From contig OZ246397.1 in NCBI GenBank assembly GCA_965230945.1, positions 175,701 through 239,700 on the forward strand: DNA of 64,000 nucleotides, read 5' to 3'. Every line of letters starts with the position of its first letter. Position 1 is the stretch's first letter. The stretch comes from an uncultured Gammaproteobacteria bacterium (lineage in GTDB: Bacteria; Patescibacteriota; Microgenomatia; PFEM01; JAPLYW01). Below, in pieces: positions 42,163-57,752 of the stretch. The notes beneath the pieces are model-generated. The model saw nothing but the letters and a program-made list of their open reading frames with translations. It searched no databases and had not been told where the DNA came from. A program made the position numbers and the translations under genes.

Positions 42163-42233
42163 TGCGGGATCGTCTAATGGTAGGACGCTTGACTCTGGAT
42201 CAAGTAATCTTGGTTCGAATCCCAGTCCCGCAG
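42163..42233 (+). tRNA. tRNA-Gln (anticodon CUG)
   Basis: Hand-folded. Acceptor TGCGGGA/TCCCGCA with U1:A72 and G73 (a bacterial Gln identity set), D stem GTCT/GGAC, anticodon stem CTTGA/TCAAG, loop CTCTGGA, T loop TTCGAAT (one T-stem mismatch), 4-nt variable loop. Confidence 0.7.
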
Positions 42234-42354
42234 CAAACTTGAGAACTCAATTGGCTAAGTTACAAATTTAGTTTGTTAAGCCTTGTTTGAAGACCAATTG
42301 AACTAAAATTAACTATTCAGCTCAAATTTCCGTTAGAAATAGACTACTCAAGAT

Positions 42355-43092
42355 ATGAATTTATATAAAAGGAACCAAAAATTAATGGCTTGTTTCACAA
42401 CTAAAGAATTGATTAATTTAATGCTATGGCCGAAAGAGCAGGTCTTACTGAATACCATGCTGGACGCAAGACTACAAGGAACAAACATTGATGATATGAA
42501 GCTAAAGCAATCGGTATTAAAATTAGCCAAAAATTCAGTAAAGTCGACAGACTATGAATATTGGGTATCAATTTTTACTTTATCTGAAGAATTTGGTAAA
42601 GACTGTGAGGTTTGTTTTTACCTGAAGGACACCTTTGATCATCATAAACAGTCGATAACCACATATACTGATTTAGAAAAGTTTAAAGAGCAAAATACTC
42701 CAGCTGATGTGATACTTAAACAAGGCTCTAATCGATTCTTTGAATTCCAGCTAAAGAGATATCAAGGTGACTTAAATCAAGATAGTCTATTTACTTTCAT
42801 CAAAAAGAAAATAATGCACTACAGTTCTCCTATCAACTATTGTATCATTCTACAACATAGTCCTGGCACAAAATTGCCCACATTTTTATTTGAAGATTTG
42901 TGTGCAAAAATTAAAACAATGCCTTTACAAAAAAGAGACTTGGGTAGAATTTGCTTTTTGTTTAATGCAAACAATAAATATATGATATTAGCACATGTTT
43001 ATCCGGAACTAGCAATGTACAAGCGTCCTTTTATAAAAGGGAGCGAACAAGCCAAAGAGATAATTAGTCCAAAAATGAGTTATAAGGATTAA
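42355..43092 (+). CDS. hypothetical protein, first ORF of the island
   Basis: 245-aa ORF with no recognisable motif. Followed immediately by repeat copy R1. Confidence 0.35.
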   Translation: MNLYKRNQKLMACFTTKELINLMLWPKEQVLLNTMLDARLQGTNIDDMKLKQSVLKLAKNSVKSTDYEYWVSIFTLSEEFGKDCEVCFYLKDTFDHHKQSITTYTDLEKFKEQNTPADVILKQGSNRFFEFQLKRYQGDLNQDSLFTFIKKKIMHYSSPINYCIILQHSPGTKLPTFLFEDLCAKIKTMPLQKRDLGRICFLFNANNKYMILAHVYPELAMYKRPFIKGSEQAKEIISPKMSYKD

Positions 43093-43220
43093 AGGGTCCT
43101 AGACCAGCCTATTCAATTATTTTGGAATAAGAACCCTAGGCACTCTATCTAATTATAAAGACTAAGTGAATCCAAACCCACAAAGCTCAAGCCAAACTAG
43201 ATTGGCTAGTTATAAAGAAG
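43093..43220 (+). repeat. island repeat family, copy R1 (long form with CCTAGG and CTAGATTGG sub-motifs)
   Basis: AGGGTCCTAGACCAGCCTATTCAATTATTTTGGAATAAGAACCCTAGGCAC...AAACTAGATTGGCTAG. Homologous over about 100 nt to R2 at 48508..48600. Confidence 0.7.
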
Positions 43221-43390
43221 GATATTTGACCAGTATATCGGTATACTTCTGAGGTTCGAGCCAATCCGAATATTTTTCTTCCCATTTTTCACTTTCAGAA
43301 AGCGTCTGATATGTTTTTTCCAGTGTTATAAGCACTTTTTTGTCATAAAATTCCGTAGTAATTCTCCCGAAGTAAAAAAAGTCCCATAGT

Positions 43391-43419
43391 TTGACAAAAT
43401 CAAGGTTTAATGCTATACT
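43391..43419 (+). promoter_or_regulatory. near-consensus sigma70-type promoter TTGACA-N17-TATACT for first tasA-like gene
   Basis: Exact hexamers read from the sequence with a 17-nt spacer, about 125 nt upstream of the ATG at 43544. Confidence 0.55.
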
Positions 43420-43543
43420 GCATTTTCACTTAGGAGTTAATTTGAGAACCAAAAGTAGAAGCACTCAAAAGTTCTCTTTTTAATCCTTAAAGGTATTCAG
43501 TTTTTGGCACTTTAACAACAAAATAAGAGAAAGGGAAAGAAAA

Positions 43544-44104
43544 ATGAAGAAGAAATTATTAATTATTCTTCCTGTTGTAGCTGCAATGATTTTAGTGATG
43601 GCTTTTGGAGCAGTTGGTGCTAATGCTTGGTTTACAGACCAAGACAAGAGTACCGACAACTTTATCCAAGCAGGGACGGTCAATCCAGAAGTTAGAGGAG
43701 CAAGCTTTACTGTAAGTAATGCCGCTCCTGATATTTGGTACGGTCCATCCGATCCGATTACTTTCTTTAATCATACCCATAATTCAACTTTGCCGGTTAA
43801 ATACAAAATTTCCTCCGAGTTTGTTTCCCAATCGGTCGGTGGTTTTTATGACAAAGTCAGCATCAGGGTTGAAAGAAGAGAAGGAAGCAGTTGGGTTGAA
43901 TACTATAATGGGGCGCTTAATTCCGTAATCATTGGACCCAGTAAATGTGGAGCAATGGCAAATGTCCCCAGTGGTAACAGCCATGAGTGGAGAATTTGGC
44001 TTCAGGTTAATAAATCAGCTGGCAATGGTTTCCAGGGAGCAACAACCACTTTTAATCTGGTATTTGACAGTACTCAAGAAAACAACCCAGGATGGAGTGA
44101 ATAA
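43544..44104 (+). CDS. TasA/camelysin-family secreted protein with SipW-cognate class signal peptide
   Basis: MKKKLLIILPVVAAMILVMAFGAVGANAWFTDQDKSTDNFIQAGTV matches the SipW-cognate signal peptide / TasA N-terminal pattern. Confidence 0.65.
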   Translation: MKKKLLIILPVVAAMILVMAFGAVGANAWFTDQDKSTDNFIQAGTVNPEVRGASFTVSNAAPDIWYGPSDPITFFNHTHNSTLPVKYKISSEFVSQSVGGFYDKVSIRVERREGSSWVEYYNGALNSVIIGPSKCGAMANVPSGNSHEWRIWLQVNKSAGNGFQGATTTFNLVFDSTQENNPGWSE

Positions 44105-44130
44105 AAACTTAAAGGAAGGAGATGGGCTAA

Positions 44131-45123
44131 ATGAAGAAAAAAACAGCTTCCTTCTTCAAGAAATTTGGCATTAGCCTTTTAGTTTTATTTATTATATTTA
44201 TCCTCTTTCTTGCGTATGGTCATATAAACAACCGTTGGTATAAACTTATTTATATTAAAAGTGACAGTATGTTTCCTATTTTTAAGGCAGGAGACCTAAT
44301 TTGTATCACCAAACCGCCTTATGAAATAAAATCTGGAATGATTATTTGTTTTCAAATTAAAGGAGATATTGTCACCCATCGAGTTGTAGCCATAAATGAA
44401 AATGGTAGTTTTAAAACCAAGGGTGATGCCAATAAGGTTGTTGATGATTGGGATGATTATAAAATTAAAAAGGTAGCTGGAATTTATCGCTTCAAAATTC
44501 CCTACTTGGGCTATCCAATTGGATATTGTAGTTACTGGGCCAAAAGAGCAACTCTAGGAGTTAACGATTTTCTAAGAAATACTATTGATAAAATAGGCAA
44601 CATTTTTATTGGAAGCAGTGCCTATTTTGTCAACCAGGATAAAATTCTGATGGGTATCACGGCTGAAGATCCACCCATTCTGATGGGTACCACGGCTGAA
44701 GATCCACCCAAGGAAGAAAATCCAAATTCTGAAGAAGATCAAAATACTACGGAGAATCAGTCACCGGAAGATAAAGCACCAACAATAGATGTTTTTAACA
44801 TTAACAATGACGAGTCAACTACAGAAAGCCGTGAGGTAGTTCTCAATATTTCTGCTTCCGATGATATCACTCCTCCAGAAAAACTCCAAATGAGAATTGC
44901 TAATGATGAGAAAACTTGGCCAGACGAAAACGCAGACTGGGAAGCCTACTCAACAAATAAAAACTGGCAACTTTCAGAGGAAGAAGGAGAAAAAAAGGTT
45001 TGCCTTCAAGTCAAAGATGAGGCAGGCAATATTACCAGCGCCTCGGATACTATCAGCTATAAACCAGTTGATAACGAAGATAACGAAAACACCGAAGAAA
45101 CAACCGAGGACGAAGAAAGCTAA
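44131..45123 (+). CDS. sipW: SipW-type (ER/archaeal-type, S26B) signal peptidase I with about 140-aa C-terminal extension
   Basis: TM anchor, then SDSMFPIFKAGDLI (the SGSMEP box), THRV and TKGDAN motifs. The extension contains a 33-nt tandem duplication (ILMGITAEDPP / ILMGTTAEDPP), an acidic linker and an Ig/FN3-like segment. Confidence 0.7.
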   Translation: MKKKTASFFKKFGISLLVLFIIFILFLAYGHINNRWYKLIYIKSDSMFPIFKAGDLICITKPPYEIKSGMIICFQIKGDIVTHRVVAINENGSFKTKGDANKVVDDWDDYKIKKVAGIYRFKIPYLGYPIGYCSYWAKRATLGVNDFLRNTIDKIGNIFIGSSAYFVNQDKILMGITAEDPPILMGTTAEDPPKEENPNSEEDQNTTENQSPEDKAPTIDVFNINNDESTTESREVVLNISASDDITPPEKLQMRIANDEKTWPDENADWEAYSTNKNWQLSEEEGEKKVCLQVKDEAGNITSASDTISYKPVDNEDNENTEETTEDEES

Positions 45124-45247
45124 AATTAAGCCAAAAACTGAATATTAACAAACGAGACCACTTCGTGGAAAACTATAATCTTTTTTGATTATAAACCCCC
45201 ACGCAGTGGTCTTTTCTTATAGAAAATAAAAATTAAAGTCCTATAAG

Positions 45248-45276
45248 TTGACACGATTAAGATTTAGTGTTATATT
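45248..45276 (+). promoter_or_regulatory. near-consensus sigma70-type promoter TTGACA-N17-TATATT for second tasA-like gene
   Basis: Exact hexamers with a 17-nt spacer. The downstream leader, about 95 nt, is 85-90% identical to the leader of the first tasA-like gene. Confidence 0.55.
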
Positions 45277-45412
45277 AAAACTCCTTCATGGGATAAAAGA
45301 AAGAATTAAAAGTGAAAGCACTTTAAAAAAGCTCTTTTTTTAATCCTCAAAGGTATTCAGTTTTTGGCACTTTAACAACAAAATAAGAAAAAAAAGAAAG
45401 GAAGGAAAGCAG

Positions 45413-45964
45413 ATGAAAAAGAAAAAACTCTTTATCATTCTTTCCGTAGCGGTTGTCTTTGTTCTCGTCCTTGCTTTTGGTGCTATTGGCACCAATGCTT
45501 GGTTTAACGACCAAGAGACAAGTGAAGGGAATCTCTTTGAAGCAGGAACCCTTGAGTTAGATGTGCAAGGTAGGAATGAAGCAAACGAGTCTTACACTTT
45601 TTCAAATATTAAACCTGGTGATAGCGCAGGGTGGGAAGGGGTTACTTCTCCTTGGATACCTGGCTTGAATTGGACAGTAAAAAATACTGGTTCAATCGAT
45701 GGCGTTCTAACTGTTAGCTTAAAGGACATTGTCAATGTAGGCAGTGCTCCATTAGCTACCCAGCTTAGACCACAGGTTCGAGTAAACGGTGTTTGGAAAA
45801 CAGAATCCTCTGGTTTTCATAATCTTAATCCGTTTACCGTTGATTTACCTGCTGGACAAAGTGTTACTATTGCCATTGCATGGAGTTTCTACGAAAATGC
45901 TGGTAACGAGTATCAAGGTGCAAGTACAACCTTTGATGTTCATTTTGACTTAGCGCAAAAATAA
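45413..45964 (+). CDS. TasA/camelysin-family secreted protein, paralogue of 43544..44104
   Basis: MKKKKLFIILSVAVVFVLVLAFGAIGTNAWFNDQETSEGNLFEAGTLELDV. Confidence 0.65.
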   Translation: MKKKKLFIILSVAVVFVLVLAFGAIGTNAWFNDQETSEGNLFEAGTLELDVQGRNEANESYTFSNIKPGDSAGWEGVTSPWIPGLNWTVKNTGSIDGVLTVSLKDIVNVGSAPLATQLRPQVRVNGVWKTESSGFHNLNPFTVDLPAGQSVTIAIAWSFYENAGNEYQGASTTFDVHFDLAQK

Positions 45965-46124
45965 TATATAACAAGACCAACATCCTTAACTTCTCAAGAA
46001 GTTAAAAACCAATCTTTCTAGAGCCAAAAACTGAAAAATATACCACTTGAGGTGAAATTTGATAATCTTTGGTTATCACTTTCCGCTTCAGGTGGTTCTT
46101 TTATGACTATTTTCCACTAAAAAA

Positions 46125-46151
46125 CCCTCCGCAAAGGAGGGTTTTCTTTTT
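46125..46151 (+). terminator. rho-independent terminator of the tasA-sipW-tasA module
   Basis: CCCTCC-GCAAA-GGAGGG hairpin followed by TTTTCTTTTT. Confidence 0.7.
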
Positions 46152-46204
46152 GACAACTAAGATGTGGTAAGAAAAAGGGGTTTAAATTGATAAAATCTGT
46201 TTTT

Positions 46205-46290
46205 CTTTTTTATACTGTCTCATTTGTCTCATTTACTCTTGAGTTATAATGATAGAAAGGTCTTAGACCAACCCGCTCAACTTAGAAAAG
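46205..46290 (+). repeat. island repeat family, copy R6 (short form)
   Basis: TTTTATACTGTCTCATTTGTCTCATTTACTCTTGAGTTATAATGATAGAAAGGTCTTAGACCAACCCGCTCAAC. Confidence 0.7.
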
Positions 46291-46334
46291 CCCTAAATAT
46301 TGGGCTTTTTTTAATTATATGTTAAAATAAAAAT

Positions 46335-47576
46335 ATGATTGACTTGATTTTTGTAGTTTCTCAATCAAATAGAAACAGCATTGCCGCTCTCTTAGGTACC
46401 CTCGATACCGAAAAACAGATTATTGAACGTTTTAATATAAAGCTAATTAATGAAAAAGGTGTTGAAAAAGAAATAAAATCCAAAAAAAAGAAAATTATTT
46501 GTTTTTCTTTTCAAACTCCCGATGTTTTTAAACTCCAACCATTAATAAGGAAAATTAAAAAAGATAAAGAAACTCTTCTGATAGCAGGAGGCGCTCACCC
46601 ATCAGGTAGTCCTCAACATACCTTAAAAATGGGCTTTGACTTTGCTTTTATAGGAGAAAGCGAGGAAACATTTAAGAGCTTTTTAGAAAAATATCATTCA
46701 AGCCAAAACAACTATGAAAAAATAAACGGCATTGCCTTTAAACAAAATAGCAAATTTATTGTCACTGAAAAAGCGAAACCAGTTGATATCACAAAATATT
46801 TACCTGTTTCTGAAAGATTCCAATTTTTCACTCCTATCGAGATAACTAGAGGTTGTCCATATGGTTGTCGTTTTTGCCAAACTACTTATCTTTTTGGGAA
46901 AATAAGACACCGAACGATAAAACAAATTATTGACTCAGCTAAAATTCTGACTGAGCAGGGTTGGACAAAAATAAGATTTATAAGCCCTAACATCCTATCT
47001 TATGGCTCTGTAGATGGTAAGAAAACCAATCTACCAGAATTAAAAAGAATACTAGAATCAGTTAGAAAAATTAACGGTGTTGAAAAGATTTATGCTGGTA
47101 GTTTTCCTTCCGAAATCAGACCAGAAAATGTTACAAAAGAAGCTTTATCAATTTTAAAAAAATATGCTAATAATGACAATATTATTATCGGGCTCCAATC
47201 AGGAAGTAATAATGTTTTAAAAAGAATGCATAGACAGCACACTGTTAGAGAGGGTTTAGAAGCAATTGAAAAAGCACTTGAGATTGGATTTAAGGTAAAT
47301 GTTGACTTTATCTTTGGAACCCCAGGAGAAACAAAGGAAAATGAAAAAGAGACGATTGAAATAATTAAAAAATTAACTAAATTACAGGGCGTTAGAATTC
47401 ACGGGCATACTTTTCTACCTTTACCTGGAACGCCTTGGGAAAATGAAAAAGCAGGGAAAATCTCAGATGGATTAAAAAAATTTCTTAAAGGGCTAATTGA
47501 TTCTTCGAAGGTTTATGGTGATTGGGAAAAACAAGAACAGTTATCTAAAATGATCAGTCATCTTCTAAAGAAATAA
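46335..47576 (+). CDS. B12-binding-domain radical SAM protein
   Basis: N-terminal cobalamin-binding-like domain and ITRGCPYGCRFCQT (CxxxCxxC radical SAM cluster). Confidence 0.7.
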   Translation: MIDLIFVVSQSNRNSIAALLGTLDTEKQIIERFNIKLINEKGVEKEIKSKKKKIICFSFQTPDVFKLQPLIRKIKKDKETLLIAGGAHPSGSPQHTLKMGFDFAFIGESEETFKSFLEKYHSSQNNYEKINGIAFKQNSKFIVTEKAKPVDITKYLPVSERFQFFTPIEITRGCPYGCRFCQTTYLFGKIRHRTIKQIIDSAKILTEQGWTKIRFISPNILSYGSVDGKKTNLPELKRILESVRKINGVEKIYAGSFPSEIRPENVTKEALSILKKYANNDNIIIGLQSGSNNVLKRMHRQHTVREGLEAIEKALEIGFKVNVDFIFGTPGETKENEKETIEIIKKLTKLQGVRIHGHTFLPLPGTPWENEKAGKISDGLKKFLKGLIDSSKVYGDWEKQEQLSKMISHLLKK

Positions 47577-47579
47577 TTC

Positions 47580-47725
47580 TGTCTTTGATAAACCACCTCA
47601 GGATAAGCTATAATCTTTTCTAAGTTACTAGTTCAAAAATCGTCTGCTAAGGCAACTCGTTGGGAATAATACTGTAGATATGGGATCGAAAGGGCCTAGA
47701 CCGACTTGCTCAGCATAAGTTTGTG
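47580..47725 (+). repeat. island repeat family, copy R3 (promoter-like module plus GGGAATA-N-ATGGGATCGAARGGGCCTAGACC module)
   Basis: TTGATAAACCACCTCAGGATAAGCTATAAT...CGTTGGGAATAATACTGTAGATATGGGATCGAAAGGGCCTAGACCGACTTGCTCAGC. Confidence 0.7.
47585..47614 (+). promoter_or_regulatory. promoter-like TTGATA-N18-TATAAT module inside repeat R3
   Basis: Read directly from the sequence. The same module recurs at 50995..51024 (TATAAC) and 51709..51738. Confidence 0.4.
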
Positions 47726-47750
47726 GGTATAAAATAGAAGTATCAGACTA

Positions 47751-48500
47751 ATGAATAGAGAACAAAATACATTTTTCTCAGATTTATTACAGAATCTTGG
47801 TTTTATTGCTGCAGCAGTTGTAGCGTTGTCTCAATATGCTTTAAACGAAAGCTTTAAATTCTTGTTTGAAAATAATACGGAATTAATGAAGATGTCTAGT
47901 TTGGTCGCACTTATTTTGTCCGGTGCTATTTTTTTTGGCTTTTTTGCAATTAGATTTAATCTACTTACCAAAGTGTATCCAAATAAGAAGAAAAAGGGCG
48001 AATATTTTGCGAGTCTTAGAGAAGAGTCTAAGGTAGAACAACCCAAAAGCCCTCTTGGAGATAAGGAAAAGAAAATCAAAACTGGAAAAAAAATTTCTGA
48101 ACCTTTTAATTTTACATTAATCCAACTTGCATTCCTTTTTATTCTGCTTTCGTTGATTAGTTTTATGGCGAGTATTTTCTCTGTTAACCCATACTTGGTT
48201 TCGTTGTTTTATATTTTGTTCATCTGTTTTATTGTGGCCTCTATATCAATCTTTTCTATCCAACTTTATAGGGACAAGGAGACAAAAAGGAAAAGAGAAG
48301 AAACTAACGAATTAATAATGAACAAAATTCGTCAATACTTTATTGGTGATATTCAAATTCTTTATGATAGTACAAACCTCTTTACTTTAACTGGACCAAA
48401 TAGACACATAATTTTTGAGTATAAGGGAACAAAATATGATGTTTTTACGAAGTCATATGATCCCGAAAGTTATTTCTTATTGAGTGTACACAAGAATTGA
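47751..48500 (+). CDS. hypothetical membrane protein
   Basis: 249 aa with several TM helices and a Lys/Glu-rich loop. No family recognised. Confidence 0.4.
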   Translation: MNREQNTFFSDLLQNLGFIAAAVVALSQYALNESFKFLFENNTELMKMSSLVALILSGAIFFGFFAIRFNLLTKVYPNKKKKGEYFASLREESKVEQPKSPLGDKEKKIKTGKKISEPFNFTLIQLAFLFILLSLISFMASIFSVNPYLVSLFYILFICFIVASISIFSIQLYRDKETKRKREETNELIMNKIRQYFIGDIQILYDSTNLFTLTGPNRHIIFEYKGTKYDVFTKSYDPESYFLLSVHKN

Positions 48501-48507
48501 ATTGAAC

Positions 48508-48600
48508 AGGTTCTAGACCGACCTGCTCAATTATCTGGGATTAAGAACCCTAGGCATACGGTTCAGTTACAAGGACTAGATTGGTCTAGACCGGGGAGTT
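48508..48600 (+). repeat. island repeat family, copy R2 (long form)
   Basis: CAGGTTCTAGACCGACCTGCTCAATTATCTGGGATTAAGAACCCTAGGCATAC...GGACTAGATTGGTCTAGACCGG. Confidence 0.7.
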
Positions 48601-48652
48601 CAACAAATAATGACAAATCGCTCTTTGAGTGGTTTTTTGATAAAGTAAACAT

Positions 48653-49582: not shown

Positions 49583-49682
49583 TAGAAGTAGTATCAGAAA
49601 TACGCCTGCGATCATAGTTTAACAGAAAAATACCTTGTAGAAAACAGATTAAATTAGTATTCTGCTCGGACAAAAGGTACTC

Positions 49683-49790
49683 TTTTTTTATAGTGTCTCA
49701 TTTGTCTCATTTAGCCTCGAGGTGATACGCTTAGATTGTTGAGTTATAATGACTAAAAGGTTCTAGACCGGCCTGTTCAGCAAAATATCC
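49683..49790 (+). repeat. island repeat family, copy R7 (105-nt form)
   Basis: TTTTTATAGTGTCTCATTTGTCTCATTTAGCCTCGAGGTGATACGCTTAGATTGTTGAGTTATAATGACTAAAAGGTTCTAGACCGGCCTGTTCAGCAAAAT. Confidence 0.75.
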
Positions 49791-49844
49791 TATAATTTGA
49801 CTTTGTGCCTTTCTTATATTAACATTTAAAATAATAAAGACATT

Positions 49845-51014: not shown

Positions 51015-51150
51015 CCTCTATGGGTTTGAAACCTTCGGCTATAATGATAGAAAGGACCTAGACCATCCTGCTCAGCTCGTTGGGAATAGTACCGTAAGTA
51101 TGGGATCGAAGGGGCCTAGCCCAACCTGCTTCAGCTACGATTTGTTTATT
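50990..51150 (+). repeat. island repeat family, copy R4 (composite: promoter-like module, TATAATGATAGAAAGG module, two CTAGNCC-CCTGCT-CAGC motifs)
   Basis: ...GGACCTAGACCATCCTGCTCAGCTCGTTGGGAATAGTACCGTAAGTATGGGATCGAAGGGGCCTAGCCCAACCTGCTTCAGC. Confidence 0.75.
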
Positions 51151-51638
51151 TTACGAAGTAGGTAGGCGGCAAAATTGTTTCCATATTTTACCTGTAAAGA
51201 TTTCTTTTGCCAGTCTTTACCTGTAACAATTTTTCGGCAATTTTTTACTCGGCAATTACATATCAGCTTATTGTTATTATTTTCAAAAGTCCCATAGTCT
51301 ACAGTAAGTTCCTCCCCTTTTGAAATGTTCCCTAAGGTAAAAAATACATTCTTACCTCGTATGCCGATATTTGGTTCGCATGAATGATTTATATAAAGCA
51401 TGCTTTTCTTTAATTCCTCATTAGTAGTCGGGGCAATATAATGATTGTCATCGATTTGGAGTTCTGAGCCTTTAATAATTTCTTTATTATTATCAATAAA
51501 TTGCTGGTCAACAATACGGCCATTTTTTATAGCCACCTTTTCTCCTTCACGTATATCTTCTTTTGTAAACAAACCCTTACCATGTATCTTACTTTTTTTG
51601 ACTTCAGCTCTAAAAAATGTTTGAGATTCTAACTGCAT
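51135..51638 (-). CDS. SET-domain protein (putative lysine methyltransferase) with post-SET Cys cluster
   Basis: GKGLFTKEDIREGEKV, NHSCEPN and ELTVDYG signature motifs, then CNCRVKNC. Confidence 0.7.
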   Translation of the reverse strand: MQLESQTFFRAEVKKSKIHGKGLFTKEDIREGEKVAIKNGRIVDQQFIDNNKEIIKGSELQIDDNHYIAPTTNEELKKSMLYINHSCEPNIGIRGKNVFFTLGNISKGEELTVDYGTFENNNNKLICNCRVKNCRKIVTGKDWQKKSLQVKYGNNFAAYLLRKINKS

Positions 51639-51704
51639 TAACGAAATTATATCATATAAAAATTCTAATTATAATTATTCATCTTTATGCTAAAAATTCC
51701 AAAG

Positions 51705-51915
51705 TCTTTTGATAAACTTCTCGAGGATAAGCTATAATATTCTTCAGTCGGTGGTTTGGAAATCATCAACTAAGACCAGCAGATTAGGAATAGCACCGTA
51801 AGTATGGGATCGAAGGGGCCCTAGACTAATCTGCTCAATTTTTTCGGAATTAAAACCGTAGGAACACCGTCCAGCTTTAAGGACTAGAAAGATCCAAACT
51901 GTGGAACTCAGCCAA
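51705..51915 (+). repeat. island repeat family, copy R5 (composite, longest copy)
   Basis: TTGATAAACTTCTCGAGGATAAGCTATAAT...AGGAATAGCACCGTAAGTATGGGATCGAAGGGGCCCTAGACTAATCTGCTCAATTTTTTCGGAATTAAAACCGTAGGAAC...GGACTAGAAAGATCC. Lies between two minus-strand genes but keeps plus orientation. Confidence 0.7.
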
Positions 51916-52172
51916 ACAGGACACCCAGGTATTAATTAGTTTATTTGACTTGTTAACTACAACTGATATACCATGTGGAACAACTGTAGAAGGCGGCAAT
52001 CAAGGTCTGGCTCCGGGTACTTCTTCGGGAAGTGAAGGAACGGCAGTTGTTGGAGAATAAATATTAGTTTAAAGAAAAAGAGGAAAAAACATACCCAACG
52101 TCGTCATAAAAGATTTCAATCTTGAAAGAAGATTCAATCAAGAACGCAAAATTACTTACGAAAATATATATA

Positions 52173-52667
52173 TTAAAATTGATTTAAAGCTTCCCTTGCA
52201 ACAATGCCAACTAAATCTTTAAAGCCTTCGGGATTTACTTGATAAGTAATTGCTAGCGCACCGATAAAAATAATGACTGCCAACCACCTGGTATATTTGC
52301 CGCGGGTGCGGACAAACAAAATAATCGAAAGAATAGCCATTATTGCTGGGAATATTGCTTTCAAATCCCCAAAAGTTACATAATAACCGGCTACATACTC
52401 GCCTTCGGTTCCTAAAAATTCAGCTAGATTAAAATTAATCTTAAAAATTACCAGGATAAATTCTAAGATAATGACAGTCAGCATGGTCAAGGAAGCCCAT
52501 TTAGTGGACTTCCCTTCTGTCCTGTAAACCTGGTAAATTACTGCTGGCAGTAAAAAGCCCAGAATATAAAGGACGTTTTTCTGCCAAAATCCCAAAACAA
52601 TGCCAATGACAAGAAGGACTAAAAGGACAGTACATGTTGCTGTTGCGTATTTTGTTGGTTTCGCCAT
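52173..52667 (-). CDS. hypothetical membrane protein (5 TM)
   Basis: 164-aa hydrophobic ORF. Confidence 0.4.
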   Translation of the reverse strand: MAKPTKYATATCTVLLVLLVIGIVLGFWQKNVLYILGFLLPAVIYQVYRTEGKSTKWASLTMLTVIILEFILVIFKINFNLAEFLGTEGEYVAGYYVTFGDLKAIFPAIMAILSIILFVRTRGKYTRWLAVIIFIGALAITYQVNPEGFKDLVGIVAREALNQF

Positions 52668-52735
52668 AGGTTTTGTTTAATTTATTATATTATTTATTTA
52701 TTTGTTTGTTAAGTCAATCTCTAAATATTTAAAAA

Positions 52736-52760
52736 CTTTCTAAACCGGCCTGCTTAACAT
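52736..52760 (+). repeat. island repeat family, degenerate copy R12
   Basis: CTTTCTAAACCGGCCTGCTTAACAT keeps the ACCGGCCTGCT core but has lost the CTAGACC half. Confidence 0.35.
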
Positions 52761-52812
52761 ATGTTTTTTAAAACGATACAACAGTCTTTTTTTGTTATGG
52801 TAAAATTGTTTA

Positions 52813-53811
52813 ATGATAAAAAATAAAACAATACTGGTTGCTGGAGGAGTTGTTTTAGCTATCGTTATGGTTTGGTTGATTGCTTCTTTTATATTATTTA
52901 ATGCCCCTCAGACTCAATCTCAAAAGGAAGAAGTTTTTACAGTTGCATTGAAAACTACTGAAACAGAAATAATAGATAAACTAAAAAACCAGGGGTTTAT
53001 TCGTAATACTTGGGCATTCAATCTAGCCTTAACTATTAAGGATAAACATAATAAAATTGAGAAGGGAGGATACTATCTTTCAAAAAATTTAAACGCTTGG
53101 CGGGTTGCAGATAAACTTACAAGCCCACCCGATATGAAATGGGTAGTTATTCCGGAAGGGCTAAGAAAAGAAGAAATTGGTGAAATCCTAGCCAAGACTT
53201 TTAACTGGAGCAGTGATGATTTAGATAAATGGAATAACACTTATACAGCTATGAAATTTGATTATCTTGAGGGCGTTTATTTCCCTGATACTTATCTTAT
53301 TCCTAAGAAAGAAAATGGATTAGATATCGCTAACCGCATGATTAACCGTTTTAATGAAAAATTTACTCCTTACCTTAATCAGTTTGAAAAACAAAATATC
53401 ATTTGGACAACTGGATTAAGACTTGCCTCTGTAGTTCAGAGAGAGGCAGCAGGTAAACAAGATATGCCGCTTATTGCTGGAATTCTTTGGAATAGACTAT
53501 TAAAAGAGATGAAATTAGAGGTGGATGCTACGGTCCAATATGCACGAGGTAAAACCGATAAAGGCTGGTGGACACCTATTAAACCTGAGGATATAACAGA
53601 GATTGATTCCCCATATAACACTTATAAATATAAAGGGTTACCCCCACATCCAATTGGTAATCCTGGAATTGACGCTATTGAAGCAGTTTTAAACCCAACA
53701 GAAACAGATTGTTTATATTACCTACATGATAGCAATAGACAAATTCATTGTTCCAAAACTTACGAAGAGCATAAAGCTAATATTGAGAAGTATTTAAAAA
53801 ACAAAAAATAG
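52813..53811 (+). CDS. mltG: endolytic murein transglycosylase MltG (YceG family)
   Basis: N-terminal TM. GLPPHPIGNPGIDAIEAVLNPTETDCLYYL...HCSKTYEEH corresponds to the conserved YceG C-terminal block. Confidence 0.75.
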   Translation: MIKNKTILVAGGVVLAIVMVWLIASFILFNAPQTQSQKEEVFTVALKTTETEIIDKLKNQGFIRNTWAFNLALTIKDKHNKIEKGGYYLSKNLNAWRVADKLTSPPDMKWVVIPEGLRKEEIGEILAKTFNWSSDDLDKWNNTYTAMKFDYLEGVYFPDTYLIPKKENGLDIANRMINRFNEKFTPYLNQFEKQNIIWTTGLRLASVVQREAAGKQDMPLIAGILWNRLLKEMKLEVDATVQYARGKTDKGWWTPIKPEDITEIDSPYNTYKYKGLPPHPIGNPGIDAIEAVLNPTETDCLYYLHDSNRQIHCSKTYEEHKANIEKYLKNKK

Positions 53812-53825
53812 GAATTATTTTCTAT

Positions 53826-53930
53826 TTCTTTTTATAGTACCTCATTTGTCTCATTTGGCCTCGGAGTGATACACTTAGAGTATTGAGTTATAGGAACTAA
53901 TAGGTCCCAGACCGACCCGCTTAGCATAGA
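53826..53930 (+). repeat. island repeat family, copy R8 (105-nt form)
   Basis: TTTTTATAGTACCTCATTTGTCTCATTTGGCCTCGGAGTGATACACTTAGAGTATTGAGTTATAGGAACTAATAGGTCCCAGACCGACCCGCTTAGCATAG. Confidence 0.75.
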
Positions 53931-53938
53931 AATTCTTT

Positions 53939-54271
53939 ATGATAGACAAATGTTCTCAGTGTGGTCTTTGCTGTTGTTTATTTTTAGTGAATTTAGCCGA
54001 AGAAGAATACCGGTCAGGCAAATACAGAACTTAGTTTGAGGAGTTTGGCTTGATTGATAACTTCCACAAGGCAGCCGCGTGTGGGGCAAACATTCTCAAA
54101 CAAAAAGAAGATGGCAATTGCATCTATCTTAAGGGAAACAAATGTTCTATTCATAAAATCAGGCCTCAAGTTTGCAGAGAGTTTTTCTGCACCTCGAAGT
54201 TGAAAAAGTTCAGAAAAATGATTGAACAGATTGAAAAGAAGCGAGCTAGTCTGGAAAAGAGAAAGAAGTAA
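53939..54271 (+). pseudogene. YkgJ-family (CxxCxxCC) Fe/Zn-cluster protein gene interrupted by an in-frame TAG at 54032-54034
   Basis: MIDKCSQCGLCC...YRT-TAG-FEEFGLIDNFHKAAACGAN...CIYLKGNKCSIHKIRPQVCREFFC. Both halves are in the same frame (verified codon by codon). The second half is listed as ORF 54050..54271 starting at TTG. Confidence 0.55.
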
Positions 54272-54300
54272 AAGTTCCTAGACCAGCCTACTCAGTTCTA
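54272..54300 (+). repeat. island repeat family, short copy R11
   Basis: GTTCCTAGACCAGCCTACTCAGTTC directly after the ykgJ-like stop codon. Confidence 0.6.
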
Positions 54301-54318
54301 AAAAATAAAATGGTCATG

Positions 54319-55317
54319 CTAATTTTTCTTAAACAAAAATTCAACAATATCGCTTGCTACTTTTCTGGATTGGCCAAAGACGGGGCAATGGTGAATATCA
54401 ATACCAGGACAGTCATTTAACTCTAATACATATGGTTTATTTGCTGATTCATCGTAAATAATATCTACCCCAGTTATTACCATACCAATAGCTTTAGCTG
54501 CCTTAATAGCGATTTTCTTTAGCTCGCAGCTTATTTCATCAGTGACATCTCTGCCGATTCCCCCAGTGCTGATGTTGGCATTTTGTCTTAAAAAAACTTT
54601 TTCTCTTTTTTGCGGAATATAAGTTAACTTTTTATCCTGTTTCTTTAAATTTCTTTTTATTTCCCCGTTAAGCCTTATTTTACATAAAGGTTTTTCATAT
54701 CTTTCTCCTACAAGCGGATTCTGATTAAATTTCTTAATAAGCTGGCGAATGTTGCTGAATCCATCACCAATAACATGAGCAGGAACTCTTTCTATTGCTG
54801 CTGGAACTTTATTGCCAATAACCAACAAACGATAATCTTTCCCCTTAATAAATTCCTCAATCAAAACATTTTTCTTTCCTGGTGTATTAAAAACTAAGGG
54901 CAAAACCTCATCAAATTCTTTTAATGATTCGATGTTGGCAAAGACCTTTTTTCCATGAGCTCCTTTAGCGGGTTTTAAAACGCAGGGAAATAAATTCTTT
55001 TTTGAAATTATTCTTTTTGCTTCTCTTGGAGTTCTGACAAGCCAGCTTTTGGGGATGGGAATTTTATGGCTCCGTAAAATACTTTTAGTTAAAAACTTAT
55101 TATTAGCAATGAAACAGGCTGGTTGGGAGTTAACAGGAAGGGAAGTGCCTTTAATAAACAAAGATTTTCCATTAAAAGTTAGCTTTAAAAGGTGAAAGCG
55201 CTTAGAAATAACCTCAACTTTTATTCCCTTCTCTAGAGCAGCATCTAAAATAACTTGAGTGCTTTGACTTCTAAGCCTTATTTCTCTAGAAACAAATTTG
55301 TTTATTTTATTTGTCAT
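54319..55317 (-). CDS. ATP-grasp domain ligase (RimK/cyanophycin-synthetase-N-like)
   Basis: C-terminal ...RQNANISTGGIGRDVTDEI...VDIIYDESANKPYVLELNDCPG is the ATP-grasp nucleotide/Mg-binding region. N-terminal pre-ATP-grasp domain. Confidence 0.55.
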   Translation of the reverse strand: MTNKINKFVSREIRLRSQSTQVILDAALEKGIKVEVISKRFHLLKLTFNGKSLFIKGTSLPVNSQPACFIANNKFLTKSILRSHKIPIPKSWLVRTPREAKRIISKKNLFPCVLKPAKGAHGKKVFANIESLKEFDEVLPLVFNTPGKKNVLIEEFIKGKDYRLLVIGNKVPAAIERVPAHVIGDGFSNIRQLIKKFNQNPLVGERYEKPLCKIRLNGEIKRNLKKQDKKLTYIPQKREKVFLRQNANISTGGIGRDVTDEISCELKKIAIKAAKAIGMVITGVDIIYDESANKPYVLELNDCPGIDIHHCPVFGQSRKVASDIVEFLFKKN

Positions 55318-55482
55318 TTTTTACCTCGTTTAAACATAGTCATGTCATGATACTAGCCAATCGCATAGGGCAAATAAATAAAAAGATCCCGAGGGAGGGC
55401 AATTAAAGAAAGACTTTTTTTCCTTTTAATTAAGCTTTTCTAATTAAAATTATACCATTTTTTATTAAAAACTTCTAGATTT

Positions 55483-55734
55483 TTGTGGTTGGGCTTCATG
55501 GTTCACAACAGATTGGGAATGTCAACCTTAGATTATGCGTGCTATAATGAACTTATTAATAGTAAAAAAGATACAATAGACAATTTAATAGCTACCTTTC
55601 TCGAAAAAGGCGGTCGGATCAATAAATTTTACCTCCGAAATCGAAAGAAGGGGCCTTCTCTTGTCTATTTGAATGGCTGGTATCGCGGTCGCAATATTCG
55701 TGAAGCAGTGTTGAGGGCGCTTGCAGACCAATAA
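55483..55734 (+). CDS. small hypothetical protein
   Basis: 83-aa ORF with no motif. Confidence 0.3.
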   Translation: MWLGFMVHNRLGMSTLDYACYNELINSKKDTIDNLIATFLEKGGRINKFYLRNRKKGPSLVYLNGWYRGRNIREAVLRALADQ

Positions 55735-55833
55735 TCAATTTTACTCCACGCAAAATATATCTACTTTTCTGACACTTCTCAGGTAAAATTTGGCCTTTTA
55801 TGGTTTTCTTTCTATAAGAAATTAAACCAGGAG

Positions 55834-56160
55834 CTAACGATAACCTCCCCTTCTTGGCCCTCGGTTGTCTCTTCTGGGACCTCCCCCTCTGTTGTCGAAC
55901 CTTGGTTTCTCTTCTCTTGGTTTTGCAACATTAACAGCAATCTTTCTTCCTTCCAACTCAGTCTCATTTAACTTTTCAATAGCTTCATCTGCTTCTTTGT
56001 CGTTTTCCATTTCAACAAAACCAAATCCCTTGCTTTGACCACTATATCTGTCAGTGATTACATCACAAGAAACAACCTTGCCAAATTTGGAGAATATTTC
56101 TTCTAGTTGGGAGCTAGCTATGGTATAAGGAAGCCCTCCAACGAATAATCTTTTGGACAT
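55834..56160 (-). CDS. RRM-type RNA-binding protein with Arg/Gly-rich tail
   Basis: RNP-2 LFVGGL and RNP-1 KGFGFVEM octamer, C-terminal RGGGPRRDNRGPRRGGYR. Confidence 0.75.
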   Translation of the reverse strand: MSKRLFVGGLPYTIASSQLEEIFSKFGKVVSCDVITDRYSGQSKGFGFVEMENDKEADEAIEKLNETELEGRKIAVNVAKPREEKPRFDNRGGGPRRDNRGPRRGGYR

Positions 56161-56340
56161 TTATTTTTCACCACCTTTCTGTTTTAAAATACTGTCTCTG
56201 TCTGACGGATAGAAAAAATCTTTGGAGGATATCTTCTTATCTAACTAGAAGAAACAGGTGTTAACATATCCCTCCTTAAGGAATATGTTCATATTATAAC
56301 ACATTATTTCTTCAACTGCACTGTTTTCTCAAATATAGGG

Positions 56341-56400
56341 TGATTAGACTCTAGACCGACCTGCTCAGCAAATTGGGAATAGTTGGCCGTACTTTTTATA
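56341..56400 (+). repeat. island repeat family, copy R10
   Basis: GACTCTAGACCGACCTGCTCAGCAAATTGGGAATAGTTGGCCGTAC. Here the CTAGACC motif precedes the GGGAATAG module. Confidence 0.65.
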
Positions 56401-56433
56401 GAAAAATATCAAAGGTGTGGTAAGATTGAGTCA

Positions 56434-57117
56434 ATGAAAAAGATTTTGATTATCTTTGCCATTACCATTCTTGTTGTGGTGGTTGTTTTTGGCGCTTTAC
56501 GGCTTTTAGTGGGCGGCGGTGAAGATACTTGGATTTGCGTCGATGGTCAGTGGGTGAAGCACGGCGCGCCTGTCATGCCTAAACCTGAAGAGGGTTGCGG
56601 TGAAGAGAAACTAATTGGCGGCGATAAGGATGAGCATGGCTGCATTGGCTCAGCAGGATATACTTGGTGCGAGTCAAAACAAAAGTGTTTGAGGGAATGG
56701 GAAGAGCCTTGCGAACAAGAAGAAGTTTTTAACTTGCTCAAGGAATTAGAGAAAGAAACACAAATTGATTTTTCGGGGATTGTTAAAACTGAATTCGTTT
56801 GGAAAATAGAAGGCGAGAAGGTAGGTAAAGAGCAAAAAACTGAAGAACTGGTAACAGCTGGTAAAGGTTTTGATGTTGAGAAGATCTCCGATGAGCAGCA
56901 TAGAAGTATCGAGGAATTTTTTAGGGACAATGGTTTTGAAATAGATGTTTACAATGTGGCTGACGGGACTATTGTTAGGGCAACTGGTTACAAGAAGAGT
57001 CAAATTGCTTGTCTAGTTATTGGTGGTGCTAGCGGATACAAAGAAGCAACCGGTCAATGGACTCCGCCCGAGCCAGACATAAAAGATGTTGAAGTAAAAT
57101 GTGGGATGTTGGAGTGA
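56434..57117 (+). CDS. secreted Cys-rich hypothetical protein
   Basis: Signal peptide/TM MKKILIIFAITILVVVVVFG, then 12 Cys in CxxxxC-like spacing. Start taken at the internal Met preceded by AAGATTGAG. Confidence 0.45.
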   Translation: MKKILIIFAITILVVVVVFGALRLLVGGGEDTWICVDGQWVKHGAPVMPKPEEGCGEEKLIGGDKDEHGCIGSAGYTWCESKQKCLREWEEPCEQEEVFNLLKELEKETQIDFSGIVKTEFVWKIEGEKVGKEQKTEELVTAGKGFDVEKISDEQHRSIEEFFRDNGFEIDVYNVADGTIVRATGYKKSQIACLVIGGASGYKEATGQWTPPEPDIKDVEVKCGMLE

Positions 57118-57164
57118 TTTTTAAAAAGCTCACCAGATGATTGTTTTAAATAGATCATCATTTC

Positions 57165-57272
57165 CTTTTTTATACTGTTTCATTTGTCTCATTTAGCCTC
57201 GAAGTGATACACTTAGAATGTTGAGTTATAAGAAAAGAAAGGGCTTAGACCGAGCTACTCAGCAAATTGGAA
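57165..57272 (+). repeat. island repeat family, copy R9 (105-nt form)
   Basis: TTTTTTATACTGTTTCATTTGTCTCATTTAGCCTCGAAGTGATACACTTAGAATGTTGAGTTATAAGAAAAGAAAGGGCTTAGACCGAGCTACTCAGCAAATTGG. Confidence 0.75.
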
Positions 57273-57279
57273 AATAAAA

Positions 57280-57744
57280 ATGATAAAAATAGTATTTGGG
57301 TCTTTAGTAGGAATTTTTCTTTTGATCTTGAGTCAATTTTTCATTCCTGTTGTCAGGAATTTATTCAAGGGCTCATTTCTTTTTTTGCTCCCCCTTGCCA
57401 TCTTCTTTTCATTGGGAGGAATCTTGATATTTTTAACGGCCAAGAAAAAAATAGAAAGCAGGCTGAAAAAGTTTTTGATGTTAACAGGAACTTCTGCAGT
57501 GGGTTTTTTTGTCAGTATTTTATTACACAATTTCCTTTATGGTTTAGCTGAAATAACCAAGTATAGCTTTAGATTACATAGTTTAATGGAAACACTTCAT
57601 GTGACATTTTTTCTTATTGCAATCTTTATTTGTCCAATAGGATTTTTAGTAGGAATATTAGGAAGTGTAGTATTTTTTTGTAAAAAAATTTCCACTGAAA
57701 ATATAAAAACCGACCGCGAAAAAAATAAGCGGGGAAAAATCTAA
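57280..57744 (+). CDS. hypothetical membrane protein (4 TM)
   Basis: 154-aa hydrophobic ORF, last gene before housekeeping genes resume. Confidence 0.4.
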   Translation: MIKIVFGSLVGIFLLILSQFFIPVVRNLFKGSFLFLLPLAIFFSLGGILIFLTAKKKIESRLKKFLMLTGTSAVGFFVSILLHNFLYGLAEITKYSFRLHSLMETLHVTFFLIAIFICPIGFLVGILGSVVFFCKKISTENIKTDREKNKRGKI

Positions 57745-57752
57745 GGCTAGAA

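Follow-up and report, generated by a model that had tools for sequence, protein, structure and literature searches.

The window considered here is a stretch of 64,000 nucleotides from contig OZ246397.1 (assembly GCA_965230945.1, positions 175,701 to 239,700), deposited as an uncultured Gammaproteobacteria bacterium and placed by GTDB in the Patescibacteriota, within the candidate phyla radiation (CPR). Between a tRNA-Gln(CTG) gene and gltX lies a region, 42,235-58,216, that is probably a cassette array: some 13 modules, with a short repeat as the junction element, at a hotspot conserved among CPR genomes and seeded by the tRNA gene. The observations behind this are direct: the anatomy of the array, the co-orientation of its repeats, the tRNA-Gln anchor, an empty site in a relative, and module mosaicism with breakpoints at the repeat cores. 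CPR bacteria have tiny genomes with few recognised mobile elements, and the route by which they acquire and reshuffle accessory genes is not known.

Organization of the tRNA-Gln(CTG)/gltX Region

The tRNA-Gln(CTG) gene was located by ARAGORN and Rfam scans of the window. The modules 3' of it are listed below as cassettes in array order, each with its open reading frames (ORFs) and repeat element; modules A to D and the M4 box are segments that accompany the core of the repeat.

42163-42234, plus strand: tRNA-Gln(CTG), 5' anchor of the array, in the same direction as all repeats
42235-43117, plus strand: cassette 1, a gene of unknown function encoding 245 amino acids (aa; 42355-43092), with element 1
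From 43074: element 1, M4 box overlapping the ORF end, core 43099-43117, module D to 43164
43118-46281, plus strand: cassette 2, TasA/camelysin-like gene, SipW-like signal peptidase gene and second TasA-like gene
46201-46282: element 2, short module A, M4 and core 46263-46281
46289-46311: terminator-like hairpin just 3' of element 2
46282-47714, plus strand: cassette 3, TIGR04013-type B12/radical-SAM gene (46335-47576)
47584-47715: element 3, promoter-like module B, module C and core 47696-47714
47715-48604, plus strand: cassette 4, membrane protein gene (47751-48500)
48503-48605: element 4, core 48513-48531, module D and degenerate core 48586-48604, a gene-less unit
48605-49781, plus strand: cassette 5, 309-aa gene of unknown function (48653-49582)
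49679-49784: element 5, long module A, M4 and core 49763-49781
49782-51134, plus strand: cassette 6, 389-aa gene of unknown function (49845-51014)
50985-51134: element 6, module B, core 51058-51076, module C and second core 51116-51134
51135-51915: cassette 7, SET-domain gene 51135-51638 (minus strand), its stop 0 nt from the preceding core end
51708-51915, plus strand: element 7, module B, module C, core 51821-51839, module D and degenerate core ~51897-51915
51916-52758: cassette 8, membrane protein gene 52173-52667 (minus strand) and degenerate core 52740-52758 (plus strand)
52759-53925, plus strand: cassette 9, yceG/mltG (52813-53811)
53823-53928: element 9, long module A, M4 and core 53907-53925
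53926-54296, plus strand: cassette 10, CxxCxxCC gene (53939-54271) and core 54278-54296
54297-55510: cassette 11, RimK-type ATP-grasp gene 54319-55317 (minus strand) and a degenerate core-like sequence at ~55474-55510 (by eye)
55511-56369: cassette 12, small ORF 55483-55734 (plus strand), RRM protein gene 55834-56160 (minus strand) with a long leader, and core 56351-56369 (plus strand)
56370-57263, plus strand: cassette 13, secreted protein gene (about 56436-57117)
57161-57266: element 12, long module A, M4 and core 57245-57263, closing cassette 13
57264-58216: tail of the variable region, membrane protein gene 57280-57744 (plus strand) and 131-aa ORF 57753-58148 (minus strand), both missing from relatives

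Pfam assigns to the genes of the interval two TasA/camelysin-like proteins, a SipW-like peptidase, a B12/radical-SAM protein, a SET protein (minus strand), YceG/MltG, a CxxCxxCC protein, a RimK-type ATP-grasp protein (minus strand) and an RRM RNA-binding protein (minus strand); several secreted or membrane proteins of unknown function accompany them. An earlier sequence-only reading of the window, made without database searches, had described functionally unrelated genes, mostly one per unit, and this description holds: co-oriented sites separate variable modules of mostly a single gene. The same reading let housekeeping genes resume at 57753, ahead of gltX; the conserved right border is instead the gltX stop at 58217, because an element-free relative, locus L066, runs RRM directly into gltX, and the ORF at 57753-58148 has no counterpart in L066 or in another relative, L132.

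L066 shares 70% (Lon) and 75% (RRM) amino acid identity with the window and is collinear with it on the left flank (SerS-HD-GreA-tRNA-Glu...Lon-YkuD-tRNA-Gln) and on the right flank (gltX-g350). Between tRNA-Gln and gltX it holds the RRM gene only, with no cores, and the RRM stop lies ~25 nt from the tRNA end. This tRNA-Gln/RRM/gltX arrangement is the "empty site" of the array; the window is longer than it by 13.6 kb from tRNA-Gln to RRM and by 2 kb from RRM to gltX. The anchor also recurs: in seven loci, namely the window, L012, L023, L035, L045, L046 and L047, among them Saccharibacteria and Microgenomates, the first core has a tRNA-Gln(CTG) gene of the same direction 0.4-1.2 kb to its 5' side, where a rough estimate over ~35 loci of 8 kb gives an expectation of ~0.3 coincidences. 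The island adjoins the 3' end of a tRNA gene at a position that is recurrent across genomes (the seven loci, with L066 as the empty site). YkuD is found upstream of tRNA-Gln in the window, L035 and L045, and gltX is at most 8 kb away in six element-bearing loci.

The Repeat Element

The conserved unit of the repeat is ~40 nt (~39) long and reads G.TATAAGGAY.RAAAGGTY-CTAGACCGRCCTGCTCAGC. Position counts over 94 copies place the conservation at about -20 to +18, with a sharp 3' boundary, where information falls to about 0 after ...CAGC, and a gradual 5' decay; a weak cAArwTGGGmA box lies 3' of ~15% of copies. In the whole window the core CTAGACCRRCCTGCTCAGC has 10 matches at up to 3 mismatches, all on the plus strand and all within 46.2-57.3 kb, with a chance expectation of 0.01 from dinucleotide-preserving shuffles. 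A repeat search returned a 12-copy, 28-nt family starting at 43091, 46255, 47688, 48505, 48578, 49755, 51050, 52732, 53899, 54270, 56343 and 57237. An nhmmer profile of the core plus 30 nt upstream finds 13 copies, which all lie on the plus strand inside 43,074-57,268; the other 49 kb of the window (1-43,000 and 57,300-64,000) have none. The twelve plus-strand copies listed by the sequence-only reading are thereby confirmed, as each listed start falls on an element.

Larger modules do recur around the core, as had been claimed; the ~104-nt module at 49681, 53825 and 57163 is 80-83% identical among its copies rather than about 90%, and a short form of it is present at 46201. The TTGATAAACCACC module has three copies, with 97% and 82% identity to the reference copy, and the GGGAATAGTACCG module likewise three, with 84% and 62%. 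A CCTAGG/CTAGATTGG module exists at 43095, 48509 and 51817, which are the first, fourth and seventh elements and not those to which it had been assigned (R1, R2 and R5). At 48586, 51897 and 55474 the cores are degenerate, a judgement made by eye. Across CPR lineages the element has a long form, TTTTTATA-cTGTCTCATTTGTCTCATTT-AGCCTCAAGTGTGATACACTTGGAGTAAnCAGYTATGGGCYCGAAAGGGT-core, and a short form, ...CCTTGAGTTATAATGATAGAAAGGTY-core; other modules of the window are also found in distant genomes, and its core-D-core unit occurs in L034 as well.

Distribution Across CPR Genomes

The repeat unit is found in Parcubacteria, Microgenomates, Woesebacteria, Shapirobacteria and Saccharibacteria; the source of the window itself is Parcubacteria/Moranbacteria-like. 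An exact-core scan with one genome per species gave 44 loci, of which ~35 are low-GC CPR; the CPR labels among them are Woesebacteria, Shapirobacteria, Microgenomates, Saccharibacteria and 'Patescibacteria group', and several more loci come from metagenome-assembled genomes (MAGs) labelled Gammaproteobacteria with CPR-type sequence. Fetched loci were read as windows of at most 20 kb around the matches, with ORFs called by a simple script. L010, L020, L033, L034, L038, L047 and others are low-GC MAGs titled 'uncultured Gammaproteobacteria' whose neighbouring genes are CPR-like (gltX context, RRM, GIY-YIG); the Gammaproteobacteria titles of repeat-bearing MAGs are probably mislabelling.

Within the CPR the distribution is patchy. 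The element is present in only 3 of roughly 45 CPR loci fetched via the RRM protein, and it is absent from 10-20-kb loci whose RRM is 70-82% identical to that of the window. Public contigs stop within a few dozen bases of a core in L011, L015, L027 and L039, and very short contigs hold many homologues of the small GIY-YIG genes described below; short-read assemblies probably break at the repeat, and arrays are therefore likely under-represented in CPR MAGs. A phage origin was rejected on the single exact core match among 2.9 million viral contigs. Searches of the literature found no description of the element, of integron-like cassettes in CPR or of a tRNA-Gln hotspot; TIGR-Tas arrays are unrelated, being tandem box C/D guide arrays, and a paper on group I introns in Patescibacteria tRNAs mentions neither tRNA-Gln nor repeats.

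Polarity and Gene Orientation

In the 18 loci with at least two copies (76 copies in total) strands are never mixed, and cores follow each other at a median spacing of 921 bp, roughly the length of a gene. L057 carries seven co-oriented copies among genes of both strands. Scored relative to the element, the strands of the upstream and downstream genes at 79 copies are (+,+) 45 times, (+,-) 14 times, (-,+) 13 times and (-,-) seven times; the downstream gene is on the minus strand at 21 of the 79, with its stop a median of ~20 nt past the core end. The core's own TAG is the stop codon of five upstream ORFs, and about eight elements of the window begin ~0-100 nt from the stop of a plus-strand gene, in agreement with the eight copies counted by the sequence-only reading. 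Its statement that copies keep the plus orientation beside minus-strand genes also stands, the copy at 51705 lying between the SET gene (51135-51638, minus) and a membrane protein gene (52173-52667, minus). A replication-strand explanation of this polarity was set aside, the analysis of GC skew being uninformative: the skew tracks the coding strand only, its residual replicative part is small, and the island is a plus-strand block amid minus-strand genes.

[quoted passage not shown] Such an element would account for a multi-module family with partial and tandem copies, for patchy and lineage-specific expansions, for a single orientation regardless of gene direction, for the sharp 3' end, for contigs that often break at copies, and for the existence of singletons. 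It is nevertheless considered unlikely: terminal inverted repeats and stable subterminal hairpins are absent, no transposase is seen in about 340 neighbouring ORFs, and in the loci read the copies are clustered in arrays at one conserved tRNA-Gln/gltX hotspot rather than scattered. Gene-level insertions and deletions also dominate over element-level ones, with one case, in L052, that resembles loss or gain of a core alone.

Fold, tRNA Likeness and Site Class

The sequence-only reading proposed folding both strands in search of attC-like hairpins. None was found: nine variants, short and long, folded with RNA parameters give no stable hairpin (z of -0.9 to +1.7 against shuffles), the RNAalifold consensus contains 0 pairs, and mutual information shows no pairing, only a one-base register difference between two subfamilies. 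An attC-like or other conserved fold was rejected on these three null results, and the element is considered to be sequence-defined, with no IntI. Rfam scans of the window and seven element-rich loci, at gathering cutoffs and E<=1-5, returned no family beyond tRNAs, which removes a known RNA family as a candidate. The hallmarks of MITE, REP and PATE elements, namely inverted-repeat pairs flanking the copies and stable folds, are likewise missing from the window. That no GTTRRRY attC core is evident was correctly noted before; the consensus ends ...CTGCTCAGC, and ends resembling RYYYAAC (GCTCAAC, GTTCAAC) occur in only 2 of 13 window copies.

The 26 nt up to the 3' edge of the core (AAAGG-TTCTAGA-CCGAC-CTGCTCA-G-C) divide into segments of the same lengths (5+7+5+7+1) as a tRNA T-arm and 3' acceptor strand, and the core and tRNA-Gln both end ...CAGC. 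The best match to a tRNA 3' end is tRNA-Gln (mean 15.4, maximum 17 of 26); this likeness is suggestive only, since other tRNAs reach 9.5-16. True partial copies of the tRNA-Gln 3' end are present in or near the arrays of L014, L021 and L026, and also in L004. The best dyad symmetry of the ~39-nt unit is centred on the TA of CTAG (z about 3.6), with GGTCTAGACC palindromic and the symmetry beyond GGTyC/GACC weak; the att site of a large serine recombinase would be expected to have about this size and shape, ~40-50 bp with imperfect dyad symmetry, around a central crossover dinucleotide that is normally asymmetric. Readings of the unit as a sigma-54 or extracytoplasmic function (ECF) sigma factor site, dif/Xer, parS, Ter or DNA-uptake sequence were dropped by eye for poor fit in spacing, symmetry, density or orientation.

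Promoter-Like Features

Module B scores 11/12 and module A 10/12 as sigma-70 promoters, and a TATAAT-type box lies ~11 nt upstream of the core in about one third of copies. These matches are the basis of a second rival, in which the repeat (-10 to +25) is the promoter and 5' leader or operator of a CPR regulon and the cassettes reflect ordinary gene-order flux. A plus-strand gene follows the element in 58 of 79 copies, its start sometimes 0-20 nt past the core, and the palindromic GGTCTAGACC is operator-like. However, the 21 copies that face the 3' end of a minus-strand gene retain their promoter-like modules, although the next gene points the opposite way, and more than half of all copies read TATGGG or TATAAG, without the conserved final T of a -10 hexamer. 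Both yceG and the radical-SAM gene have TGnTAAAAT promoters of their own, between core and start codon. The upstream gene moreover passes on together with the element and its upstream modules, whereas the gene downstream is variable; the element is missing from most close relatives in which the same genes are kept, and 13 copies in 15 kb with none in the other 49 kb of the window are a poor match to a regulon. This is the weakest of the rivals and is regarded as very unlikely.

The repeat goes with the upstream gene and in many places directly meets the stop of a gene on the minus strand, and is therefore not simply a promoter or 5' untranslated region (UTR). An outward promoter at the 3' end of a cassette would be a reasonable secondary function, because the sigma-70 matches are good and the downstream genes mostly co-oriented; judged by their motifs, the attached modules may act in this way.

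Module Exchange Between Genomes

The comparison of syntenic loci proposed by the sequence-only reading shows repeat-bounded modules to be present, absent or replaced between relatives, with homology breaking at core ends. A relative closer than L066, L132, lies on a 61.9-kb contig whose gltX-g350-S11 peptidase right flank is that of the window, at 66.8% nucleotide identity along 3.1 kb, and whose eight cores, spread over 13 kb, all point the same way. Only two modules are common to L132 and the window, the CxxCxxCC cassette at 91.1% and the RRM unit at 84.6%, the former far exceeding the identity of the flank; from the core of the RRM unit to gltX, the genes of the window give way to two GH130 genes and an ORF of 145 aa. 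The CxxCxxCC cassette is common to the window, L132, L039 and L035, with different neighbours each time. In L039 the CxxCxxCC module (window 53886-54294) is fused directly to the RRM module (55506-56370), without the 1.2-kb segment of the minus-strand RimK gene, and L053 and L132 carry a 0.36-kb GIY-YIG gene at the RimK position. The DNA right after the core of the RRM unit differs among the window, L021, L039, L053, L057 and L069.

Some modules are core-bounded at both ends: ORF444 (minus) in L050 and L057, 87.7% identical over 1620 nt, ORF113 (minus) in L010 and L021, and the RRM unit in L021. A plus-strand ATP-grasp gene with long module A, M4 and core is common to L038, L057 and L132, each of which continues with DNA of its own; the element belongs to the 3' end of the upstream module, because the ATP-grasp unit keeps it while the downstream DNA varies. 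Among blast blocks of element-bearing loci, 22 of 189 distinct homology-block ends fall within 3 nt of the core 3' end, where random placement gives a mean of 0.54 and a maximum of 5 in 2000 trials. YceG orthologues of 79-88% identity have wholly different neighbours, and homology between the window and L003 at yceG covers only the gene and ~20 nt upstream; the differing neighbours showed gene-by-gene shuffling but no alignment of arrays. Radical-SAM orthologues in other CPR genomes stand in unrelated, core-free surroundings and so mark no cassette boundary. In the loci read, the copies do not occur scattered in both orientations, nor is the block inherited vertically along with conserved UTRs; these are the two patterns that the sequence-only reading had named as contrary to its cassette array.

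Recombinase and Nuclease Leads

The absence of an integrase from the window, noted in the sequence-only reading, is upheld by Pfam searches of the island genes and 10 left-flank ORFs and by precomputed Pfam on the right flank, the remaining left-flank ORFs being judged housekeeping from their translations only; within the same coverage no transposase is present either. Within the best 25 families per set, the ~236 ORFs from element loci show no tyrosine integrase (Phage_integrase) or transposase that recurs. The recommended search for recombinases thus yields no recurrent tyrosine integrase; its only recombinase or nuclease leads are large serine recombinases (LSRs) in L011 and L103 and small GIY-YIG genes.

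The LSRs were detected via PHROG and Pfam counts. The Woesebacteria locus L011 encodes two of them, and one of these begins ~90 nt away from a full-length element, divergent to it. A further LSR gene (141-1667; Resolvase, Recombinase and Zn-ribbon domains, E = 1e-41) is found on L103, a CPR contig without repeat copies, where it overlaps the 3' end of a convergent tRNA-Gln(CTG) by 30 nt; this is how integrases classically sit at a tRNA. The overlap suggests that LSRs use tRNA-Gln(CTG) as an attachment site in this phylum. No LSR is seen in about 35 other element loci or in the window.

The GIY-YIG genes are small (~90 aa), with seven in six element loci, all co-oriented with the elements, and almost none in element-free CPR loci. 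They lie directly 3' of tRNA-Gln (L035), of a tRNA-Gln-like fragment (L021) or of a core (L035, L053); L134, picked solely for its GIY-YIG homologue, has tRNA-Gln(CTG) immediately upstream and no cores. In L021, L035, L036 and L134 the genes share a conserved ~100-nt upstream sequence, …CCTTCGACTTCGCTCAGGCCTTCGGCTCTGAGGCTCAGGCTCGAAGAGGC…GGTCTTGAGCGACAGTGAG…GTCGAA…, and related pieces of it, CGCTTCACTCAGTGTAAACATTTGTGGTAAAAT, recur inside some repeat variants.

A third rival dispenses with a dedicated enzyme: natural competence is established in CPR bacteria, and RecA-dependent double crossovers in competent cells could use the cores as portable homology anchors, a route already proposed for the minimal mobile elements and neisserial intergenic mosaic elements (NIMEs) of Neisseria. 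The lack of a recombinase in the window and most arrays agrees with this, as do cores that are nearly identical over 19-40 nt even between CPR lineages and cassettes that are more alike than their flanks (91% vs 67%); the breakpoint statistic fits equally well. It does not account for the repeated presence of tRNA-Gln(CTG) as an anchor that points the same way as the cores, for the abrupt 3' boundary at ...CAGC, for the partial tRNA-Gln fragments in and near the arrays, or for the LSR genes found next to an element and at the 3' end of a tRNA-Gln; lengths of 19-40 bp are also near the lower limit of efficient RecA recombination. Exchange by RecA without a dedicated enzyme is considered improbable, to about the same degree as the selfish repeat.

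Proposed Model of the Array

The best overall explanation, given an about even chance of being right as a whole, is a hypervariable array between tRNA-Gln and gltX in which modules are gained, lost and exchanged at ~40-bp junction sites. Each module would end, in array orientation, in the sequence-defined ~40-bp site G.TATAAGGAY.RAAAGGTY-CTAGACCGRCCTGCTCAGC, co-oriented with the tRNA, and recombination at these sites would move modules between genomes. The exchange may be site-specific, with a recombinase encoded elsewhere and supplied in trans; a dedicated enzyme of this kind is put forward tentatively, with an LSR acting at the CTAG-centred dyad as the best candidate on the strength of two loci. 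The promoter-like modules (A, B and the TATAAT form of M4) would belong to the upstream module and probably read into the next one, and the small GIY-YIG nuclease genes may be frequent selfish passengers or helpers. It is possible, if doubtful, that CPR bacteria own an integron-independent cassette system with single-gene modules that end in ~40-bp tRNA-Gln-3'-like sites, often bearing an outward promoter, with arrays seeded at tRNA-Gln(CTG), LSRs in trans and the ubiquitous small GIY-YIG nucleases possibly helping. Cassettes would then be interchangeable among CPR lineages as a shared accessory pool, because the site is nearly identical across them.

Several points weigh against this model. 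The 64-kb window and most element loci hold no recombinase or nuclease, and the LSR link consists of one element-adjacent locus (L011) and one tRNA-adjacent locus (L103). The breakpoint statistic shows exchange at cores, which would fit site-specific or homologous recombination, and the crossover point is not locatable because all cores are alike and alignments run through them, so that blast blocks necessarily stop at core edges wherever the neighbours are different; no excised circle or strain-level polymorphism was observed. The central TA of CTAG is palindromic, a poor fit to a serine recombinase, and would not alone enforce polarity. Identity between the core and the resident tRNA-Gln 3' end is only ~58%, hardly more than with other tRNAs. 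Some copies stand singly, away from any obvious array (L003), many are promoter-like and lie upstream of plus-strand genes with TATAAT-like boxes, and the model has no place for the tandem gene-less units (core-C-core, core-D-core).

Features of Individual Cassettes

Several cassettes show features of their own. In cassette 2, two 66-nt segments (43467-43532 and 45327-45392, 94% identical) precede the two TasA/camelysin-like genes, and strong TTGACA-17-TATAnT promoters (43391, 45248) lie 5' of these segments; this looks like a local duplication of promoter and leader inside one cassette. The SipW-like signal peptidase gene between them contains an in-frame 33-nt tandem duplication (44644-44709, 97% identical). 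The radical-SAM TIGR04013 protein of cassette 3 has homologues of 62-66% identity in a few CPR genomes, and the next-best matches (~40-45%) are from Asgard archaea and Thermodesulfobacteria, which is consistent with a horizontally acquired accessory gene. Extended -10 boxes, TGGTAAAAT and TGTTAAAAT (52790-52815 and 46310-46337), lie 6-8 nt before the ATG of yceG and the radical-SAM gene; their spacing suggests that the two mRNAs are leaderless or nearly so.

The 530-bp gap between the minus-strand SET and membrane protein genes is occupied by element 7 and a called plus-strand ORF of 36 aa (about 51950-52060), and the region 51940-52100 may be a small gene or noncoding RNA driven by module B. 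The CxxCxxCC gene (PF03692) of cassette 10 has an in-frame TAG at 54032-54034, after codon 31 (...GKYRT*FEEF...), where the homologue in L053 and L132 has Q (YRTQLEEF); the gene is either a recent pseudogene or contains a read-through or recoding site. The leader of the RRM gene, ~150-170 nt long (56161-56330, minus strand), is strongly conserved in many CPR loci, whether the repeat is present or not. Its conserved pieces, ...CTGTCTCTGTCTGGTGGATAGAA..TCTTTGGAGGATATCTTCTTATC.AACTAGAGGAAACAG..., end at the TGTTATAAT promoter, are found in loci L052-L069 and have no Rfam match; the leader may be an autoregulatory RNA element.

Significance and Comparison with Known Systems

The array looks like a previously undescribed integron-like, integron-independent gene collection in an ultra-small CPR bacterium. 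A conserved junction site would let genes flow as modules within CPR lineages and from one to another, the core would serve as a sequence tag for the CPR flexible gene pool in metagenomes, and the genetic tools in development for Saccharibacteria would gain a natural landing pad and perhaps promoter parts.

The sequence-only reading favoured an array in the manner of integrons or of clusters of attC sites lacking integron-integrases (CALINs). The cassette array itself is retained on the grounds of its mosaicism, the empty site and the confinement of copies to one strand within a locus; an attC/integron mechanism is not, there being no hairpin and no IntI. Both integrons and CALINs resemble the window in having mostly single-gene modules, each with a co-oriented recombination-type site at its end, ORFs that nearly fill the modules in either orientation, and arrays that differ between relatives; CALINs also lack an adjacent integrase. 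IntI and attI are required for a complete integron, not for a CALIN. An attC site is a structure-defined imperfect hairpin with R''/L''-L'/R' boxes, whose folded single strand is recombined by the tyrosine recombinase IntI, whereas the site of the window is sequence-defined, near-invariant across CPR and free of hairpin or covariation; the array is anchored at a tRNA rather than attI, and many of its sites carry promoter-like modules.

The closest mechanistic analogue is considered to be the composite islands of the staphylococcal cassette chromosome (SCC) at the 3' end of rlmH/orfX. Many SCC modules have no recombinase of their own and are moved in trans by the large serine recombinases CcrAB. 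As in SCC, tandem cassettes accumulate at one conserved gene 3' end and co-oriented direct repeats hold a short integration-site sequence; LSRs are also the only recombinases found here, and in L011 they occur as a pair. SCC modules, however, measure 3-60 kb, against 0.4-3 kb and usually one gene here, the anchor here is a tRNA and not rlmH, the repeat is ~40 nt with mosaic modules, and the LSR link appears in two loci and never in the window. The pdif modules of Acinetobacter, which depend on Xer, are likewise one to a few genes long, with short (28-bp) sequence-defined sites and housekeeping recombinases in trans; pdif sites, however, alternate in orientation (C/D, D/C) around an 11-6-11 dyad, whereas the sites here are all direct and, by eye only, have no dif-like architecture.

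Neisserial intergenic mosaic and minimal mobile elements and the bacterial interspersed mosaic elements (BIMEs) or REPs share with the repeat a mosaic, intergenic nature, a position at gene ends and gene-level replacement between strains. They are palindromic or inverted, occur in both orientations genome-wide and are species-specific, whereas the repeat here is polar, clustered at a tRNA hotspot and common to CPR lineages. The tycheposons of Prochlorococcus are islands that grow beside specific tRNA genes with partial tRNA 3' copies at their borders; they house the flexible genes of streamlined genomes, have their own tyrosine integrase and often a replication module, and their att sites are copies of tRNA ends (bioRxiv 10.1101/2020.12.28.424599). 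The CPR loci are similar in their partial tRNA-Gln fragments and in the integrase abutting tRNA-Gln, yet modules here are one gene long without mobility genes, and the repeat is only ~58% identical to the tRNA end and conserved in its own right across lineages. Putative mobile promoters are near-identical promoter-like sequences upstream of unrelated genes (PMC3488235); in contrast to these, conservation here continues for 19 nt beyond the -10 region, and the sequence stays with the upstream gene and is also present where there is no co-oriented downstream gene. If the proposed model is true, the CPR array would represent a second, sequence-defined solution to the cassette array beside the structure-defined attC/IntI system.

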